From positions 224,001 to 288,000 of the forward strand of contig CAVXXK010000006.1 of assembly GCA_963765675.1 (NCBI GenBank): a stretch of DNA of 64,000 nucleotides, in the 5' to 3' direction. This DNA is from an uncultured delta proteobacterium. GTDB taxonomy: Bacteria > Desulfobacterota > Binatia > Binatales > Binataceae. This document shows, in pieces, positions 17,996 to 25,543 of the stretch (positions are counted from its first letter, which is position 1; each line of letters begins with the position of its first letter). The position numbers were made by a program, and so were the translations under genes. A model generated the notes under the pieces. That model did not search any database, was not told where the DNA came from, and saw only the letters and a list, made by a program, of their open reading frames with translations.

Positions 17996-20050
17996 GTGAA
18001 GTCGCCGGATCTCGGGCTGCGCAGCGACCAGTTCGAGTACGTTCAACTGATCCTGCTGGCGGTGTTAGTCGGAGTTTTCGGGGCGCTCGGAAATCTCGGT
18101 TTCCGCGAGCTGATCGCGTTCTTCACCTGGCTATTCCGCGGTCTCGAATGGAATCTGCTCGGGATCAATCGCGGCGGAATTTTCCGCGCGCTGACGCCGA
18201 TCATCCTGCTCTCCGGCGGCGTCGCGATACTCGTGCTCGATCGCTTTTTTCCCGGCGATATTCTTGGCTACGGATTCCCAAATTTTCTCGAGCAGGTCAA
18301 TCTTGGCAGCGCGCGAATCAAGCGCCGATGGATCGTGCTCAAGGCTCTTGGCGCGTCGCTCTCGCTTGGCTCGGGCGCTTCGGTCGGACGCGAAGGCCCG
18401 ATCGCGCAAATCGGCGGCGCGATTGGCTCGGCCGTGGCGCAATTGCGCGGCCTCAGCTCCGACCGCGCCAAGGTGCTGGTCGCCGCCGGCGCGGGAGCCG
18501 GAATCGCGACCACTTTCAACGCTCCGATCGGCGGCCTGATGTTCGCGCTCGAAATTGTCCTCCTGGGCCAGACCGAGACCGCGAACCTCGCGCTGCTCAT
18601 CATCTCGACCTTCAGCGCGGTGGTGACTTCGCGCGCGATCCTCGGCAACGCCGCGGTCTTTCAGGTGCCCCAGTTCGATTTGAAAAGTTACTGGGAGATG
18701 CTGACCTACGCGTTGATGGGCGTGGCGTTGGGCGCTCTCGGCGCGAGCTATATTCGAGTGTTCAACGCGACTGGCGCGTATTTCCGGCGCATGGCTCTTC
18801 CAGCGTGGCAGAAGCTCGCCATCGGACTCTCGCTCGTCGGCGTGATCGCGATCTTCCTGCCCGCCAATCTCTCCGACGGATATCCGATCATCAACCGAGC
18901 GATGGCGGGCGAGTACGGCCTCGCGATGCTGCTGGCGTTGTGCGTCGCGAAGTACGTGGCGTCGAGCTTGTCGCTCGGCTCGGGCGCGCCCGGCGGAGTT
19001 TTCGGACCGATCTTTTTCATCGGTACGATGGCGGGGGGAGCGTTCCAGAGAATCTCGGCGCTCTTCATTCCGCATCTTACCGGGCCGCGCGGATCGTACG
19101 CGCTCGTCGGCTTGGGCGCTTTCCTGGCCGGCACCACGCACGCGCCGTTGACGGCGCTGTTTTTGCTCTTCGAGATGACCGGAGATTTTACGATTGCGTT
19201 GCCCGCGATGATCGCTGCGGTTACCGCGCTGGTGGTCTCGCGCGCAATCGAGTCCGAGTCGATCGATACTTACCGCCTCGCGCGCGAGGGCAAGACCCTG
19301 CAGATCTCGCAGGAGCGGCTCGCGCTTACGCATATACCCGTTAGCGCGGTGATGACCAAGGACGTAACCGTGGTGAGCGCGAACACGCGCCTGAACGATG
19401 TCCTGCACATAGCAGGACAGACCGCGCAGTCCACGCTTCCGGTCGTAAGCTCCGACGGCGAATTTGTCGGATTGATTGTGACTCGTGACCTGCTTGCGCT
19501 TTTAGGTGGCGGCGCAGAGCTCGGTCCACTGGTCAACGCATTCGATATCGCGCAGGTGAATTGTCCACATCTCACCGCTGATCAGAATCTGGATTTCGCG
19601 AGCCAGTTGATGGAGCAGGAGCGGCTCGACGAAATTCCCGTCGTCGAGAGAAGGGGCGGCGGACGCTTCCTCGGCCTGGTGACGCGCCAGCATATCGCGC
19701 AGGCGCTCAATCGGGTCTCGGTTTCGCTCTCGGCCTTGGCGACGCGCGATCAGAATATCTACTGGGCCACAGGCTATCGCGTCACGCGGCTCGAGGTTCC
19801 TGCCGCCGCCGATGGCACCACGGTCCGCGCCCTCGATACGCGCGCTCGCTTCGGTGTCACACTGCTGGCGCTGCAGAGCAGAGACGATCCGGACGCGGGG
19901 TTCGTGCCGGTGGCTCCCGACCGCCGCCTCAGGACTGGCGACCTGATCGTCGCAGCGGGACGTCCCGCCGACATCCGGCGCTTCGAGCGTGAGCTGGAGC
20001 TGCGCGTCTCGGCCTCCGCTCAGCCCGCGTCCGCGTCGGCAAAGACATAA
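17996..20050 (+). CDS. ClC family chloride channel/transporter with CBS pair and TrkA-C (RCK_C) domain
   Basis: GREGP, FNAPIGG, GVFGP, THAPLT; CBS domains; C-terminal RFGVTLLAL...LRTGDLIVAAG. Confidence 0.93.
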   Translation: MKSPDLGLRSDQFEYVQLILLAVLVGVFGALGNLGFRELIAFFTWLFRGLEWNLLGINRGGIFRALTPIILLSGGVAILVLDRFFPGDILGYGFPNFLEQVNLGSARIKRRWIVLKALGASLSLGSGASVGREGPIAQIGGAIGSAVAQLRGLSSDRAKVLVAAGAGAGIATTFNAPIGGLMFALEIVLLGQTETANLALLIISTFSAVVTSRAILGNAAVFQVPQFDLKSYWEMLTYALMGVALGALGASYIRVFNATGAYFRRMALPAWQKLAIGLSLVGVIAIFLPANLSDGYPIINRAMAGEYGLAMLLALCVAKYVASSLSLGSGAPGGVFGPIFFIGTMAGGAFQRISALFIPHLTGPRGSYALVGLGAFLAGTTHAPLTALFLLFEMTGDFTIALPAMIAAVTALVVSRAIESESIDTYRLAREGKTLQISQERLALTHIPVSAVMTKDVTVVSANTRLNDVLHIAGQTAQSTLPVVSSDGEFVGLIVTRDLLALLGGGAELGPLVNAFDIAQVNCPHLTADQNLDFASQLMEQERLDEIPVVERRGGGRFLGLVTRQHIAQALNRVSVSLSALATRDQNIYWATGYRVTRLEVPAAADGTTVRALDTRARFGVTLLALQSRDDPDAGFVPVAPDRRLRTGDLIVAAGRPADIRRFERELELRVSASAQPASASAKT

Positions 20051-20682
20051 GGGTGCGCGCGTCCCGCGCGAATCTCCGCGCAGAGTTCCGCCACGCTTTT
20101 GACCTCGCGTTCGAGTTCAGTCGCGCAGGTGAGGAACCATTTCGCGGTCGAAAAGTGCGCGTCGCTACCGCCGACCGCCGTCAGTCCGAGCTTGAGCGCG
20201 GTGTCTTGCGCGCGCTCGTTCTCGAGGTTCGAATTCTGCCCGTTCAGCACTTCGATTGCGCCTATCGCCGCGCCGTGGCGCGCGACCAGAGCGTCCAGCC
20301 GCGCGCCGAATCCCGACTCGCGGAACGGATGCGCCGGAATCGCAACGCCGCCTTCGTGATGAATCACCTCGATCAGATGCTCGCTGCGGAGCATGCGCGA
20401 GGTCAGGTCGAATCGGCGCATCACTTCCTGATTGACACCGTAGAGCAGCAGATGGCCGAGGTCGGTGTCCGCCTCTATCCCCTTGAACACCGCGATTCCG
20501 AAACGCTCGGAGAGTTCGGCGTATTCGCGATCGATCTCGGGGTCGGTCGGGAACAGACGATGCTCGGTGAAGCAGATCGCGCCAAGCCCCGCGCCGCTCG
20601 CTTGCGCGAACCCGAGATATTGCTCCGCGCTAACCCGCGAGTCCGCGGAGAGTTTCGTATGCACATGAAGATCAACGATCAT
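20020..20682 (-). CDS. PHP domain metal-dependent phosphoesterase
   Basis: DLHVHT, FTEH, GIE, GHLLLYG, PAHPFR, EVLNG, GGSDAH. Confidence 0.92.
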   Translation of the reverse strand: MIVDLHVHTKLSADSRVSAEQYLGFAQASGAGLGAICFTEHRLFPTDPEIDREYAELSERFGIAVFKGIEADTDLGHLLLYGVNQEVMRRFDLTSRMLRSEHLIEVIHHEGGVAIPAHPFRESGFGARLDALVARHGAAIGAIEVLNGQNSNLENERAQDTALKLGLTAVGGSDAHFSTAKWFLTCATELEREVKSVAELCAEIRAGRAHPYVFADADAG

Positions 20683-20751
20683 GCTATCCCCGGATGCAGT
20701 TGCCTGATTCCTCCCCATTGTCTGACATGGGGGAGGAGCAGACCGTTCGGT

Positions 20752-20856
20752 CGTCATTTCGAGCCCTGGGCGAGAAATCCCGGAGCGCCCATGCTCTACG
20801 CCAGCGCCACATGCAATGTCCCTCCGCCGGGATTTCTCCCTGCGGTCGAAATGACG
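20752..20856. repeat. CGTC/TGTC-class REP doublet
   Basis: cgtcatttcgagccctgggcgagaaatcccgg ... ccgggatttctccctgcggtcgaaatgacg; related to 60551-60731. Confidence 0.75.
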
Positions 20857-20909
20857 ATCGAGGTTTCAGTGCCATCCGCATCCCACCGCTCAATTGAAAA
20901 CTCGCTCGC

Positions 20910-22418
20910 TCATGGCATGTTGAAGGCGTCGCGGGTCTGCAAGTGATCGACCACCGAAACAATTCCGGTGACGCGTAACACGGTCCATCGGATATTCGCG
21001 CGATCCCATTCGGTCGGAACCGTTCCCCACAGAATCAGCGTGTCTTCCTCGAGCTTGAACTGCACGCCCTTATAGCCTTCCGCATCGAGCTCGCGCCGGA
21101 GCAACTGCAATTGCTCGGGCGTCGCACCGCCGTTCAGATCGGGCATCGGTATCGGCATCGGGCCGAGGTCGGGCGCAGGCGGCTCCGCGGGTTGCACCGC
21201 AAGATGCGCGATCACGGTGGTCAGCAGGAACGCGCCCCCGAACAGCACCGCGAGTGCAAGCAGATAAAATCGCGAGCCGCGGTTGCGCCGCCTGCCGCGC
21301 CGATATTCTCCCGGCATCGGAGCTGAACCGGGAAAATTGCCCAGGTCGATTGTCCGCGCCTGTGCCGATTCGGGCTCGGATACGGGATCGTAACTGAGAG
21401 GCGCTGCGCAGAACGAGCAGTAGCGCGAGTCCCCGGGAATCTGCCGGCCGCATCGCGGACACTCAATCGTTGCGAGGTCGGAAAGCACAGTCGGCGCAGA
21501 AGGCGACGCGGGCGTACCCGCGCGTCCGAGCGGCAGCCGCATCTGCGGGCGCGATTGGTTCGTCGTCGGCGCCGGAGCCGGCTGCGGTGCGGTCACCACG
21601 CGGGGCTCGATCGGCGCTCCGGATTTGATCGCGACCAGCCGCGCCTTGAATTCGCCTACATCCTGCGGGCGCAGCGCGACGTCGTAGTTGAGCGTCTGAT
21701 CGACCAGATCGGCCAGCGCGGGGTTAACTCCCGGCGCGGCGCTGCGCAGCGGCGGAAAGCTGAACGGAGGCTCCGCGGCAGGATCGCGCCCGGAGATCGC
21801 ATGATGCATCGTCGCGGCAAGCGCGTAGAGATCGGAGCGGAACTCGACGCGCCCGCGATACTGTTCCGGCGGCGCGTAGCCCTGCGTTCCGATCATCGTC
21901 GCGTTCTGCATCGGCAGGAAGTGCCGCGCGATTCCGAAGTCGATGAGCTTGACCTGTCCGTTCGCCGTCAGCATCACGTTCGACGGCTTCAGATCGCGAT
22001 AGATCACTGGCGGTGAGAGGCTGTGCAGGTAGGCCAGCGTGTCGCAGATCTGAAGCGCGATATCGATCACCTCGCTCTCGGGGAGTTTGCCATCCGCGTC
22101 GCGCAGCCGGTCTTCGAGGGTCTGGCCCTCGATATATTCCATCACCAGGTAGTGGCGATTCTCTTCGCTGAAGCGATCGAACACGCGGGGGATATGCTCG
22201 TTGCTGAGAGTGGCGAGCATGTCGGCCTCGCGCTGGAACGCGGCGACGGCGTCCTGCTGCTTTTCGGGACTGGTGAAGGTATCCACCATCTCGGCCAGAG
22301 CGCACGGGCGCGAGGCCAGGCGCAGATCCTCGGCCAGATAGACCATCTTCATTCCGCCGCCGCCGAGCGGACGGATCGCGCGGTAGCGACCGCCGACGAT
22401 AGTGTTGGCCGCGATCAT
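20910..22418 (-). CDS. Hanks-type Ser/Thr protein kinase with WNK-like Lys placement; zinc ribbon, TM and C-terminal BON-like domain
   Basis: GGGGMKMVY, CALAEM, FQRE, YRDLKPSN, DFG, GTQGYAPPEQ; CPRC...CSFC; TM; TLILWGTVP...GIVSVVDHL. Confidence 0.93.
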   Translation of the reverse strand: MIAANTIVGGRYRAIRPLGGGGMKMVYLAEDLRLASRPCALAEMVDTFTSPEKQQDAVAAFQREADMLATLSNEHIPRVFDRFSEENRHYLVMEYIEGQTLEDRLRDADGKLPESEVIDIALQICDTLAYLHSLSPPVIYRDLKPSNVMLTANGQVKLIDFGIARHFLPMQNATMIGTQGYAPPEQYRGRVEFRSDLYALAATMHHAISGRDPAAEPPFSFPPLRSAAPGVNPALADLVDQTLNYDVALRPQDVGEFKARLVAIKSGAPIEPRVVTAPQPAPAPTTNQSRPQMRLPLGRAGTPASPSAPTVLSDLATIECPRCGRQIPGDSRYCSFCAAPLSYDPVSEPESAQARTIDLGNFPGSAPMPGEYRRGRRRNRGSRFYLLALAVLFGGAFLLTTVIAHLAVQPAEPPAPDLGPMPIPMPDLNGGATPEQLQLLRRELDAEGYKGVQFKLEEDTLILWGTVPTEWDRANIRWTVLRVTGIVSVVDHLQTRDAFNMP

Positions 22419-22419
22419 T

Positions 22420-22824
22420 TCAGTAGCGCCATGTGTCCGAGGGCGCCGCGGTTCCGCGCAAGCCGCGCGGGCGCCGCCGGGGACGCGGTCCCGCGATTCG
22501 CTCTTCGCGCAGCGAGCCCTGCACGGCGGCATTCAGCGCGCATACGAAGTGAAGGATGGGACCTATTGGTCCCAGGATGTAGGCCAGCACGACAACGCAG
22601 AACCAAACCACACCGCGCACAACATGTCCCTTGTAAATCTGCCCGAGTCCCGGAATCACGCTCAGGACGAACGCTACGATCGGGTTGAAGCCCGGCTCTC
22701 CCGCGAAGGTCCGGGTTCCCGCGACCGGCGCGCCGCAATCCTTGCAGAACTTCGCCTCGGCAACGACGATCGGCTGGCCGCATCGTGAGCAGAAACGCGG
22801 CTGGTCGAATTGCGGATCAGGCAC
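22420..22824 (-). CDS. Zinc-ribbon plus TM2-like membrane protein
   Basis: FCSRCG...FCKDCGAP, then AFVLSVIPGLGQIYKG; GTG start overlaps the upstream stop. Confidence 0.82.
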   Translation of the reverse strand: MPDPQFDQPRFCSRCGQPIVVAEAKFCKDCGAPVAGTRTFAGEPGFNPIVAFVLSVIPGLGQIYKGHVVRGVVWFCVVVLAYILGPIGPILHFVCALNAAVQGSLREERIAGPRPRRRPRGLRGTAAPSDTWRY

Positions 22825-24094
22825 GGAAGGTAAACGGCGCCTGCCCGAGCCGGAACGAATCGCCGTCGGTGAGAGGCGCCTGCGTGATTCGCCGGTCTGC
22901 GACAAAAGTTCCATTCTGGCTGTTCAGATCTCTCAGTTCGAATCCGCCGCCGGAGCTCACGATGCTCGCGTGATGGCGTGAGACCGACGAATGATTCACC
23001 ACGATATCGTTGTCCAGCGCGCGGCCAAGGCTGGTCGCGCCATTTGTACGCAGCGAATGGCGTTGGCCGGACGCATCTTCGAGCGCGGGACCGTTCATCT
23101 GCGGACCCGGCGCGGCAACGTGCGACTCGACGTGAACCGCCGCCGCGGCTTGCGCAGGAGACGCGGCGGCAGCCGAGCCTTGCCGCAGATGGAACATCAG
23201 CTCATACCCACCGACGCGGATCTTGTCGCCGTCGTGCAAGTCAGCGCTCTCGACCCGTTGTCCGTTGACGAAGGTCCCGTCCTGAATCGCAAGCCCCTTA
23301 AGGACAAAATCCTGGCCGCGCCGTTCGATTACCGCGTGGCGCTGTTGCACTGCGGGATCGCCAAACAGTCCGATCGGATTTTCCTCCGCACGACCGATCG
23401 TAGCGCGCGAGCCCTCGACCCTGAACTGGCGTCCGCGCAAACGTCCCTGTTCCACGGTGAGCCACGCGACCTTGGTCAGCTCCTGCACCAATCCGATAAA
23501 CAAGCCGATGAAAAATCCGATGAGGCTGAGCCCGATGAGCCGCGACCACAGTCCTCCACCGGTAATCTCGTTTATCGGATCGAACAAGATCCCGCCGGCG
23601 AAGCCGCCGATGAATCCGCCGATCGCGCCCTTGGCGATATTCGGCATCGAGAGCGACGCGAGGCCCACGCCCGCGCCGAGGATCGTCGCCATGATCACCC
23701 AGCTCAGGACGCGTCCGAGGAACAGGAAGAAGCCCGACCCCGGATGCCCGAGGCCCCATCCGCCGAAACTTAACATTGCGCTGAAAATGTAATTCGAAAA
23801 ATAATCGGCGGGCAGCGCGAGCAGCAGGCAAACCACGAATCCGCGGATCAGGTTGTTGCGCGTCGTCGGATTCCATTCGATTTCCTGGCTGCCGACCGCA
23901 AGGATGAATCCGCCGATCACTCCCGACAGGATCGCCATCGCGACGTAAGACATCGCGGCGTCGAAGCTCGAGATCTGTTCGGTCAGGCTATGCCCATGGC
24001 TCGCGAGCTCGACCGGAAGCCATCCGAGCGCGCCGCCCAGAAGGCCCGCGAGCGCCTTGTTAAAAAGGTCGCGGCGATTTATGGAGCCGTCCAT
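22817..24094 (-). CDS. Multi-pass membrane protein with two FHA domains
   Basis: About 6 Gly-rich TM helices; FHA1 IGRAEEN...VQQRH...QDGTFVNG; FHA2 LGRALDN...VSRHH...SQNGTFV. Confidence 0.92.
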   Translation of the reverse strand: MDGSINRRDLFNKALAGLLGGALGWLPVELASHGHSLTEQISSFDAAMSYVAMAILSGVIGGFILAVGSQEIEWNPTTRNNLIRGFVVCLLLALPADYFSNYIFSAMLSFGGWGLGHPGSGFFLFLGRVLSWVIMATILGAGVGLASLSMPNIAKGAIGGFIGGFAGGILFDPINEITGGGLWSRLIGLSLIGFFIGLFIGLVQELTKVAWLTVEQGRLRGRQFRVEGSRATIGRAEENPIGLFGDPAVQQRHAVIERRGQDFVLKGLAIQDGTFVNGQRVESADLHDGDKIRVGGYELMFHLRQGSAAAASPAQAAAAVHVESHVAAPGPQMNGPALEDASGQRHSLRTNGATSLGRALDNDIVVNHSSVSRHHASIVSSGGGFELRDLNSQNGTFVADRRITQAPLTDGDSFRLGQAPFTFRA

Positions 24095-24301
24095 TTCAGA
24101 TCGATCCTCGTGCTCATCGCGATTCTCACAAAACCAGCACGCCCAACATATGCTTTACCAGCAGTTATAATAACCCGTCGCATCGACGCGTAAAATCCGC
24201 GCTCCATCGCCAGATGCAGCCTTCGGCTTGCGGCTGGTTGCAGACTCGGGCAGATGCACGGCATGATCGTGATGAACGCATCACCTGTTATTGGAGTATC
24301 A

Positions 24302-25543
24302 ATGGCAGAGAAGACGCTTGTCCCGGAAGCATTTGGACCTTTACAGGGTGTGAAAATCGTCTCGACCGGCACCCTGATCGCGCAACCGTTTGCCGCGGAG
24401 CTCGCCGCCGAGATGGGCGCCGAGGTGATTCAGATCGAGCGCCCGGGCACCGGAGACACCGGATGGCGCAATATCGGAATCAGACTCGCGACTCACGACG
24501 GCACTCCGCCGGTCGCGACCACCTGGGTGCAGGAACGGCGCAACGTTTTCTGCATCACGCTCGATCTCTCCAAGCCGCGCGGGCGTGAAGTCTTCCTGAA
24601 GCTTGCCGCGCGCGCCGATATCTGGATGGAGAGCTCGAAGCCCGGCACCTATCCGAAGTGGAACCTGGATGATGCGGCGGTGTGGAAGCTCAATCCAAAA
24701 CTCGTCATCACGCACGTGAGCGGCTTCGGCCAGACCGGCGATCGCGAGTATGTCACGCGCGCATCCTACGACATCGTCGGCCAGGCCGTGGCCGGGATGA
24801 TGTATCAGACGGGATATCCTGATCCCACGCCGCCGACGCGCGCCGCGCCGTGGACCGGCGACTATATCACCGCGTTGTTCACGCTATGGTCGTCGCTGGC
24901 GGGGCTTACCTATGCGCGTTCGACGGGCAAGGGCCAGGCGATCGACGTCGCGCAGTACGAGGCGATTCACAAGACGATGGGCGGCACGATGCTCGAGTAT
25001 TTTCAGCAAGGCGTTGTGCGCGAGCGCTCGGGCAATCGCGCGCAGGGCTTTCAGCCGCTCGATAGCTTCCAGGCGAGCGACGGATGGGTCGTGTTGGGTG
25101 CGCTCGGTGAAGTTTACGATCGCCTGGTTCGAGTGATCGGCCTGGATCCGGCCGATCCGAAATGGCAGAGCGCGCGCGTGAATCTCGAATCGATCGAGGG
25201 GATCGAGTTCGACGCGATCCTGCGCGGATGGGTCAGCGAGCGCACGGTCGCGCAGGTGGTGCACGCGATGGCGGAAGGCAAGGTGCCGTGCTCGCAGATC
25301 ATGTCGAGCAAGGATGCGGCCGAGGATCCGCAGTATCGTGCGCGCCAGATGCATATCGAGTGGGAAGATCCGCACGTCGGCAAGGTAAAGGGCATCGGCA
25401 TCGCGCCGAAGTTCTCGCTAACGCCCGGAAAGATCGTCCGCGGCTCGGTCACGGTCGGCGCTGACAACGCCCGCATTTACGGCGGCCTACTGGGGATGGC
25501 GTCGAGCGAGATAGAAGCGCTGAGGCGCGACAAAGTGATCTGA
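24302..25543 (+). CDS. CaiB/BaiF class III CoA-transferase
   Basis: IAQPFAA, GAEVIQIE, QERRN, VSGFGQTG, WTGDY. Confidence 0.92.
   Translation: MAEKTLVPEAFGPLQGVKIVSTGTLIAQPFAAELAAEMGAEVIQIERPGTGDTGWRNIGIRLATHDGTPPVATTWVQERRNVFCITLDLSKPRGREVFLKLAARADIWMESSKPGTYPKWNLDDAAVWKLNPKLVITHVSGFGQTGDREYVTRASYDIVGQAVAGMMYQTGYPDPTPPTRAAPWTGDYITALFTLWSSLAGLTYARSTGKGQAIDVAQYEAIHKTMGGTMLEYFQQGVVRERSGNRAQGFQPLDSFQASDGWVVLGALGEVYDRLVRVIGLDPADPKWQSARVNLESIEGIEFDAILRGWVSERTVAQVVHAMAEGKVPCSQIMSSKDAAEDPQYRARQMHIEWEDPHVGKVKGIGIAPKFSLTPGKIVRGSVTVGADNARIYGGLLGMASSEIEALRRDKVI

Follow-up and report, generated by a model that had tools for sequence, protein, structure and literature searches.

An apparently convergent, WNK-type relocation of the active-site lysine in a clade of receptor kinases from Binataceae

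The window analysed here is a stretch of 64,000 nucleotides (nt) from an uncultured delta proteobacterium of the family Binataceae (GenBank assembly GCA_963765675.1, contig CAVXXK010000006.1, positions 224,001 to 288,000). On its reverse strand, at 20910-22418, it encodes a Hanks-type Ser/Thr kinase of 502 amino acids (aa) in which the beta3 lysine of the VAIK motif is replaced by alanine (Ala42), and a lysine (Lys24) is found instead in the Gly-rich loop. This is the arrangement of the eukaryotic With No lysine (WNK) kinases. It is shared by a whole clade of bacterial receptor kinases, referred to below as K/A kinases, in which the relocation of the lysine appears to be convergent. The K/A kinases are probably active enzymes rather than pseudokinases, for which a probability of about 0.7 is given. 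Judged from the sequence, the kinase of the window resembles WNK solely in the placement of this lysine and does not belong to the WNK family.

The lysine swap and its conservation

The two exchanged positions were assigned by an HMMER alignment of the Gly loop (GGGGMK24) and the beta3 sequence (CALA42EM) to StkP of Streptococcus pneumoniae. In this alignment, A42 stands below the Lys of VAVK. K24 is aligned with the Ala of GRGGMA and thus takes the place of the third Gly in GxGxxG. In the AlphaFold2 model of the kinase domain, K24 opens strand beta2 (residues 24-31), A42 is located in beta3 (37-45) and E64 in helix alphaC (51-69). Of the residues that define Hanks-type kinases, the beta3 Lys is missing, with Ala42 in its place, its partner E64 is kept, and the Asp and Asn of the catalytic loop as well as the Asp of DFG are present. 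An APE-like motif is found as A182PPE185. The initial annotation, made from the letters of the window, had placed the lysine in the Gly loop and the alanine in beta3 and had described the alphaC Glu, YRDLKPSN, DFG and the APE-like motif as intact. Translation and StkP alignment show the swap to be right in every detail, and all the motifs were found (E64, 140-147, 160 and 182-185).

A word-indexed search provided 120 full-length homologues among the matches listed, with identities of 56-95%. Both GGGGMK and ALAEM occur in 119 of them, so that the homologues retain the pair rather than the beta3 Lys and the swap is not the isolated mutation or error that the initial annotation had named as the outcome that would refute it. 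The remaining homologue, P0104, begins past the Gly loop, yet carries ALAEM. K24, A42, E64, D142 and D160 are present in 79 of 79 further clade members with a BLASTP row, and K24 is invariant in the 130 clade members of alignment A4. Since it is present in every relative examined, the swap is far beyond chance or error. At the nucleotide level, 19 genome loci with 57-100% protein identity were compared, in which the K24 codon is AAG (13) or AAA (6) and the A42 codon is GCC (14), GCG (2), GCA (2) or GCT (1). This synonymous variation indicates selection on the residues themselves.

For a broader comparison, 1.84 billion cluster representatives (50%-identity clusters) were searched with HMMER, and the best 150 of the 935,310 kinase-domain relatives were used. 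The best BLASTP segment of each representative was mapped onto the query, and 133 of the 150 spanned positions 19-200. Lys24 without Lys42 was found in 52 of these 133 representatives (Ala42 in 51, Ser42 in one), Lys42 was present in 81, with G (62), S (9), A (7), T (2) or C (1) at position 24, and Lys at both positions in none. The initial annotation had proposed a check for co-variation of the two positions, which is found here as one event throughout the clade. When 52 K/A rows were contrasted column by column with 58 canonical rows, positions 24 and 42 split the groups fully, with frequency differences of 1.00 and 0.98, followed by 0.70 for the next column.

The 17 representatives that were set aside comprise nine gene calls from the loop Met, six fragments, P0230 and P0201. 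The nine gene calls (P0145, P0146, P0149, P0154, P0162, P0179, P0189, P0192 and P0209) begin at the Gly-loop Met (MKxVY). They are probably truncated at the N-terminus, so that annotation would miss the first beta strand together with two glycines of the loop.

Origin and taxonomic distribution

In a FastTree phylogeny of 134 kinase domains, the 53 K/A rows fall on one side of a single branch with a Shimodaira-Hasegawa (SH)-like support of 98, with a single state change. A single state change was again obtained with a quick IQ-TREE run (LG+G4) on 97 rows, with an SH-like approximate likelihood-ratio test (SH-aLRT) value of 98. For this second set, 28 of the 53 K/A rows were kept, 14 long or multi-domain canonical rows were dropped, the two canonical paralogues of the window genome were added and both trait columns were removed. 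The sister group of the K/A clade consists of 13 canonical rows, including both of these paralogues, with a weak support of 70. The trees point to a swap that arose once, within canonical bacterial PknB-like kinases.

The genome to which the window belongs (4.5 Mb, 16 contigs) contains five kinase-like loci, among which the kinase at 20910-22418 is the sole K/A kinase. Two canonical Hanks kinases, located at C1:972969-977585 of the same genome, are 54-55% identical to it. They flank a degenerate kinase-like open reading frame (ORF) at about 975309-975917, in which LNDICPQS replaces the catalytic loop and GLD replaces DFG; by these motifs, it is probably a pseudokinase. In the Binatus loci L008-L010, which are related to this cluster, an FHA gene is found close by.

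The distribution of the swap was determined with a 21-nt degenerate pattern for GGMKxVY, which was run on 151 genomes of the window's class. It gave 23 matches, and at 22 of these a K/A kinase is encoded that has A42, E64, DFG and the YRD motif. These 22 loci cover all 18 genomes of the family, that is, G000 and 17 of 17 others (16 of 16 if the unpublished G474 is left out). In the 133 genomes from 18 other families of the class, no K/A kinase was found by this pattern, which loop variants such as GGAMK or GGQK escape. The lone match outside the family, in G416, is not a kinase and was left without a tblastn match, and reversed-pattern controls gave no matches. Among 401 genomes from the phylum, a stricter 32-nt pattern matched 5, every one of them in the window's family. 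Two K/A copies each are present in G458 and G490, and the figure of three copies applies to G474 alone.

In a scan of genome contigs, at least five K/A kinases were found among the 80 loci listed, all from Binataceae or "uncultured delta proteobacterium". Where the source names bear an organism, it is Candidatus Binataceae or Binatus for 9 of 11 listed homologues and for 7 of 10 clade members. The exceptions are contigs of 2.7-8.3 kb from metagenome-assembled genomes (MAGs) labelled Limnocylindrales, Acidoferrales and Beijerinckiaceae. By these sequence matches, the K/A kinases appear to be a Binataceae-specific clade. Three K/A kinases with FGE-sulfatase or TPR/Sel1 tails (P0131, P0279 and P0280) were found on one contig of 17,439 nt, and three more of this kind (P0136, P0288 and P0150) on one contig of 23,529 nt, which suggests that K/A paralogues are arranged in arrays on some metagenomic contigs.

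Comparison with known kinases

The likeness to WNK, for which the available parts of PMC1821047 and PMC12599244 were used, comprises three features. The beta3 Lys is replaced by a small residue (Cys in WNK1, Ala42 here), both carry a Lys where beta2 starts, at the third-Gly site of GxGxxG, and both retain the alphaC Glu, the catalytic Asp and Asn and the Asp at the DFG position. The equivalence to K233 and C250 of WNK1 is based on the PKA numbering 55/72 given in the part of PMC1821047 that was available, together with the modelled beta2 and beta3 assignment.

In all other respects listed here, the two differ. The kinase of the window is nearest to the bacterial kinases StkP, Stk1, PknB and PknA. 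Of 2209 PDB sequence matches, the 60 best are bacterial Ser/Thr kinases, Aurora kinases and others, as are the Foldseek rows listed (ranks to 50), and WNK is absent from both sets. The predicted arrangement of kinase, zinc ribbon, transmembrane helix and BON domain is different from that of WNK, and none of the WNK accessory domains was detected by Pfam. In WNK, a DLG in place of DFG forms the chloride site. The kinase of the window has DFG, with F161 in 51 of 52 representatives, and shows no sign of such a site. Because the swap appears to have arisen within bacterial PknB-like kinases and the nearest structures are not WNK, the likeness is considered to be convergent. On both points, convergence and the retention of DFG rather than DLG, the initial annotation is borne out.

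Among the bacterial Hanks-type receptor kinases, StkP is the best of the 2209 PDB matches (HMMER). The closest sequences are PknB and PknA of Mycobacterium tuberculosis, StkP, and Stk1 of Staphylococcus aureus, with E-values of 1e-31 to 1e-25, and the best Foldseek fold matches of the kinase domain are PknA, Stk1 and PknB, with template-modelling scores of 0.73-0.78. These receptor kinases share with the K/A kinase a topology of cytoplasmic kinase, one transmembrane helix and an outside sensor, as well as FHA partners. They differ in having the beta3 Lys and a PASTA sensor, whereas the kinase of the window has Ala and the loop Lys, a predicted BON domain and a zinc ribbon before the transmembrane helix. 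In the available part of the bacterial Ser/Thr kinase (bSTK) atlas (bioRxiv 10.1101/2025.01.12.632604), a Met in the G-loop, a gatekeeper Met and a Pro-rich G-H loop are described as hallmarks of bacterial kinases. The corresponding features in the window are M23, M93, which by its motif position (LVMEY) would be the gatekeeper, and the Pro-rich stretch P213-L224 (PAAEPPFSFPPL), including EPPFSFPP.

A comparable shift has been described outside the protein kinases. In CAK-chloro, the positive charge is likewise shifted from position 72 to 55 (PKA numbering) within a prokaryotic kinase fold, according to the available part of Kannan et al. 2007. These are choline/aminoglycoside-kinase-like small-molecule kinases on a separate branch of the superfamily. 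They use Arg rather than Lys, have Met in beta3 and have replaced the alphaC Glu by Phe, in contrast to the invariant Glu of the clade described here.

A bacterial Hanks kinase with a catalytic Lys in the G-loop was not found in the accessible parts of the literature searched, although the supplementary tables of the atlas might list such kinases; within the same limits, the statement of the initial annotation that no characterised bacterial example is known holds. The passages of the atlas (bioRxiv 10.1101/2025.01.12.632604) and of PMC12599244 that were available describe a G-loop Lys for no bacterial family. As far as its accessible part states, the atlas was built on RefSeq and UniProt, where proteins from Binataceae MAGs are scarce. 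WNK is treated as the sole functional protein-kinase family without the beta3 Lys in the consulted part of Kannan et al. 2007 (PMC1821047).

Activity of the K/A kinases

In the proposed mechanism, strand beta3 would have given up the ATP-anchoring Lys, leaving Ala42, and the third-Gly site of the Gly loop at the start of beta2 would have gained it as Lys24. From there, K24 would reach beneath the Gly loop, passing the small side chain of Ala42, hold ATP by its alpha and beta phosphates and pair with the invariant alphaC Glu64. According to the available part of Kannan et al. 2007 (PMC1821047), WNK needs its loop Lys for catalysis, and this Lys contacts ATP like K72 of PKA. The same source describes for CAK-chloro that K72 is lost and that the unpaired alphaC Glu decays to Phe. 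The invariance of E64 in the K/A kinases, by comparison, fits a Glu that still has a partner.

The remaining catalytic residues are strongly conserved. Among the 52 clade representatives, K144, N147, D160, G162, E185 and D196 are present in all 52, and R141, D142 and F161 in 51 each. E64 is invariant in the 30 sequences of alignment A1 and the 34 of A3 and at least 90% conserved in A4 (130 members), where the activation-segment residues T174 and T178 also reach at least 90% conservation. In a tally of 34 members, the clade architectures are receptor kinases with FGE-sulfatase, Sel1, TPR, PDZ, BamE and BON domains. The genomic context of the window orthologue fits into this picture, as translation of the kinase would be coupled to that of two membrane proteins, one with a zinc ribbon and one with tandem FHA domains. 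FHA domains bind phosphothreonine, and the FHA protein would read the phosphothreonines made by the kinase.

The most serious alternative, which is nevertheless considered unlikely, is a conserved pseudokinase or ATP-binding scaffold, in which the loss of the beta3 Lys abolished phosphotransfer and which signals by conformation or by FHA recruitment. K24 would then have another role, such as binding nucleotide with no turnover or making a contact in an autoinhibited state. Pseudokinases are defined by three residues, among them the VAIK Lys, and because this Lys is absent, motif-based pipelines would label the kinase of the window as a pseudokinase. In the accessible part of the bSTK atlas (bioRxiv 10.1101/2025.01.12.632604), this Lys is missing in all seven bacterial pseudokinase families (ActPs1-3, DLHK, GLW, CP1 and DYD); however, six of the seven have also lost the HRD Asp, and the losses described there affect the HRD and/or DFG Asp or consist of a Lys-to-Arg exchange with loss of the alphaC Glu. 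In the kinase of the window, the Lys alone is missing, a loop Lys is present and D142, D160 and E64 are kept; throughout the clade, D142, K144, N147, D160, G162 and E64 are retained (51-52 of 52 representatives). The one residue that changed along with K42 is a Lys at precisely the site where WNK has its catalytic Lys, which also speaks against a mere loss of function. In favour of a scaffold, the canonical paralogues of the same genome could phosphorylate the K/A kinase in trans. Against it, many sensor architectures have evolved in the clade, as is the case for active receptor kinases.

Several observations nevertheless weigh against an active K/A kinase. The co-variation of positions 24 and 42 is one evolutionary event and provides no independent statistical evidence of coupling. 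The loss of the Lys is not always accompanied by its relocation: P0201 has Gly at position 24 and Ala at position 42, that is, a Lys lost without relocation, and a few secondary domains of multi-kinase proteins (26-34% identity) have neither the beta3 nor the loop Lys. We infer the contacts of K24 with ATP and with E64 from the other conserved catalytic residues. Furthermore, some eukaryotic pseudokinases keep both HRD and DFG. Finally, neither an FHA gene nor any other of these neighbours was found at an E-value of 1e-5 next to the second K/A copies of G490 and G458, and the argument from the FHA protein therefore holds for the window orthologue only.

A much less probable alternative is a functional analogue of WNK, that is, a kinase regulated by chloride, potassium or osmolarity that is ion-sensitive via its relocated Lys and acts with the adjacent ClC channel. 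In this case, the relocated Lys would make phosphotransfer sensitive to ions or water activity, the BON-receptor kinase and its paralogues would form an ion- or osmolarity-gated family independent of WNK, and the ClC protein would belong to the same physiology; such a scenario is regarded as highly improbable. A ClC gene with CBS and TrkA_C domains is indeed located two genes off, in an arrangement kept in L001, L002, L004 and L005, and the outer domain of the kinase is predicted to have the BON fold, like OsmY and the potassium-binding protein Kbp. However, the kinase motif is DFG and not the DLG of WNK, the ClC gene is on the opposite strand and past the PHP gene, and no ClC gene adjoins the K/A paralogues of two other genomes. 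The wider neighbourhood, including CoA-transferase, LLM oxidoreductase, hydrolase and aminotransferase genes, is syntenic in close relatives. Since the whole region is conserved in this way, its synteny says little about function and gives no specific weight to the ClC adjacency. No support for chloride sensing by the kinase of the window was found in its motif, its neighbourhood or the context of its paralogues. A sequencing or assembly error, or a mutation private to this MAG, is excluded by 119 of the 120 homologues, the 22 loci in 18 genomes and the synonymous codons.

Protein architecture and genomic context

The features of the kinase and its neighbouring genes are collected in Table 1. 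The longest ORF for the kinase begins at 22532 and would encode 540 aa. The start was taken as 22418 because homologues of 491-525 aa start at the equivalent Met and because this ATG is located 1 nt past the TGA of the upstream gene. The resulting translation opens with MIAANTIVGGRYRAIRPLGGGGMKMVYLAEDLRLASRPCALAEM.

Table 1. Features of the K/A kinase and of the neighbouring genes, in positions of the window.
Feature	Position	Strand	Basis or remark
Receptor Ser/Thr kinase gene (P0001), 502 aa	20910..22418	-	Stop codon 20910-20912
Kinase domain, presumed cytoplasmic, residues 1-275	21594..22418	-	Pfam, AlphaFold2, Foldseek
Gly-rich loop G19GGGMKMVY27	22338..22364	-	K24 codon AAG 22347-22349
A42 codon GCC, at the beta3 site normally held by the VAIK Lys	22293..22295	-	StkP alignment
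E64, alphaC Glu (FQRE)	22227..22229	-	Alignments
Catalytic loop Y140RDLKPSN147	21978..22001	-	Motif and clade counts
D160FG162	21933..21941	-	Motif and clade counts
Four-Cys zinc ribbon, residues 317-342	21393..21470	-	Pfam near-cut-off match and conserved Cys
Predicted single transmembrane helix, residues 382-407	21198..21275	-	Hydrophobic helix in model
C-terminal BON-fold domain, residues 434-499	20922..21119	-	Predicted fold and Foldseek
Tandem-FHA membrane protein, 425 aa, first gene of the unit	22817..24094	-	Pfam FHA
Zinc-ribbon membrane protein, 164 aa	22420..22914	-	Pfam; stop 1 nt ahead of the kinase start
PHP-family metallohydrolase	20020..20757	-	Pfam PHP and PHP_C; 152-nt gap from the kinase
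ClC chloride-channel homologue, 684 aa, two CBS and C-terminal TrkA_C	17996-20050	+	Pfam

The kinase is presumed to consist of a cytoplasmic kinase domain, a zinc ribbon, a single transmembrane helix and a BON domain outside the cytoplasm, where the transmembrane helix and the outside placement are predictions. The kinase domain matches PF00069 of Pfam at residues 13-215 with 122.5 bits (cut-off 31.7), and its AlphaFold2 model, which drew on 150 aligned sequences, has a mean predicted local distance difference test (pLDDT) score of 93.6 and a predicted template-modelling (pTM) score of 0.89. The match to Zn_Ribbon_1 reaches 24.4 bits and is marginally below the cut-off of 25, and all four Cys of the ribbon are invariant in 51 orthologues. 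The helix that would span the membrane is the hydrophobic helix 73-98 of a separate C-terminal model.

The C-terminal domain is modelled as alpha-beta-beta-alpha-beta with pLDDT values of 88-97. Its top Foldseek match is OsmY of E. coli (E 5.1e-4); DolP, Kbp (Kbp-based sensors), BonA and the B domain of Rv0899 come next. The Pfam BON model (PF04972) matches weakly (E 0.009), with 16.7 bits under a cut-off of 27, and is passed in 2 of 34 clade members with an E-value of 1.3e-12.

The kinase gene is preceded by the genes of the tandem-FHA protein, in which Pfam FHA matches two stretches (E 2e-35), and of the zinc-ribbon membrane protein. This gene order is kept in the loci L001-L005. In the four loci that are sufficiently long, the PHP gene, the ClC gene, which converges with it, and a hydrolase gene come next. 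Over about 98 nt (22817-22914), the FHA gene at its 3' end and the zinc-ribbon gene at its 5' end share the same DNA in different frames, and the tblastn matches to the two proteins overlap by 47-92 nt in L001-L005 (5 of 5). This may therefore be a genuine, conserved overlap and not an artefact that comes from choosing the longest ORF.

The PHP gene product was considered as a candidate for the cognate phosphatase. Its best NCBIfam models are a CehA/McbA-type metallohydrolase and a nucleotide phosphoesterase, both under the cut-off. An additional ORF of 437 aa is located between the kinase and the PHP gene in L001 (9922-11235), which shows that the linkage of these two genes is loose. For the FHA gene, the best NCBIfam model is FhaB/FipA, also under the cut-off, and in none of the four genes did an NCBIfam equivalog reach its cut-off. 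A PP2C phosphatase was not seen in the operon. A promoter and terminator scan of 19900-24400 yielded no more sites than in shuffled sequence, with a single promoter-like site at 24194-24167, upstream of the FHA gene.

The combination of a Hanks kinase with FHA membrane proteins is likewise encoded in the actinobacterial kinase-FHA operons, those of PknA/PknB with FhaA/FhaB and of PknF with Rv1747. The operon of the window differs from these in its partners, a polytopic tandem-FHA protein and a zinc-ribbon membrane protein.

Conclusion

If the K/A kinases are active, they would be a second independent and evolutionarily stable case of a protein kinase without the beta3 Lys. The rule that a protein lacking the VAIK Lys is a pseudokinase would then mislabel real bacterial kinases. 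They would also be a natural replicate of the Lys relocation, whose effect on catalysis and regulation can be compared directly with the canonical sister paralogues in the same genome, and the small soluble domain is suited for swap-back mutagenesis. For the Binataceae, a widespread uncultured soil family, the K/A kinases mark a lineage-specific signalling system.

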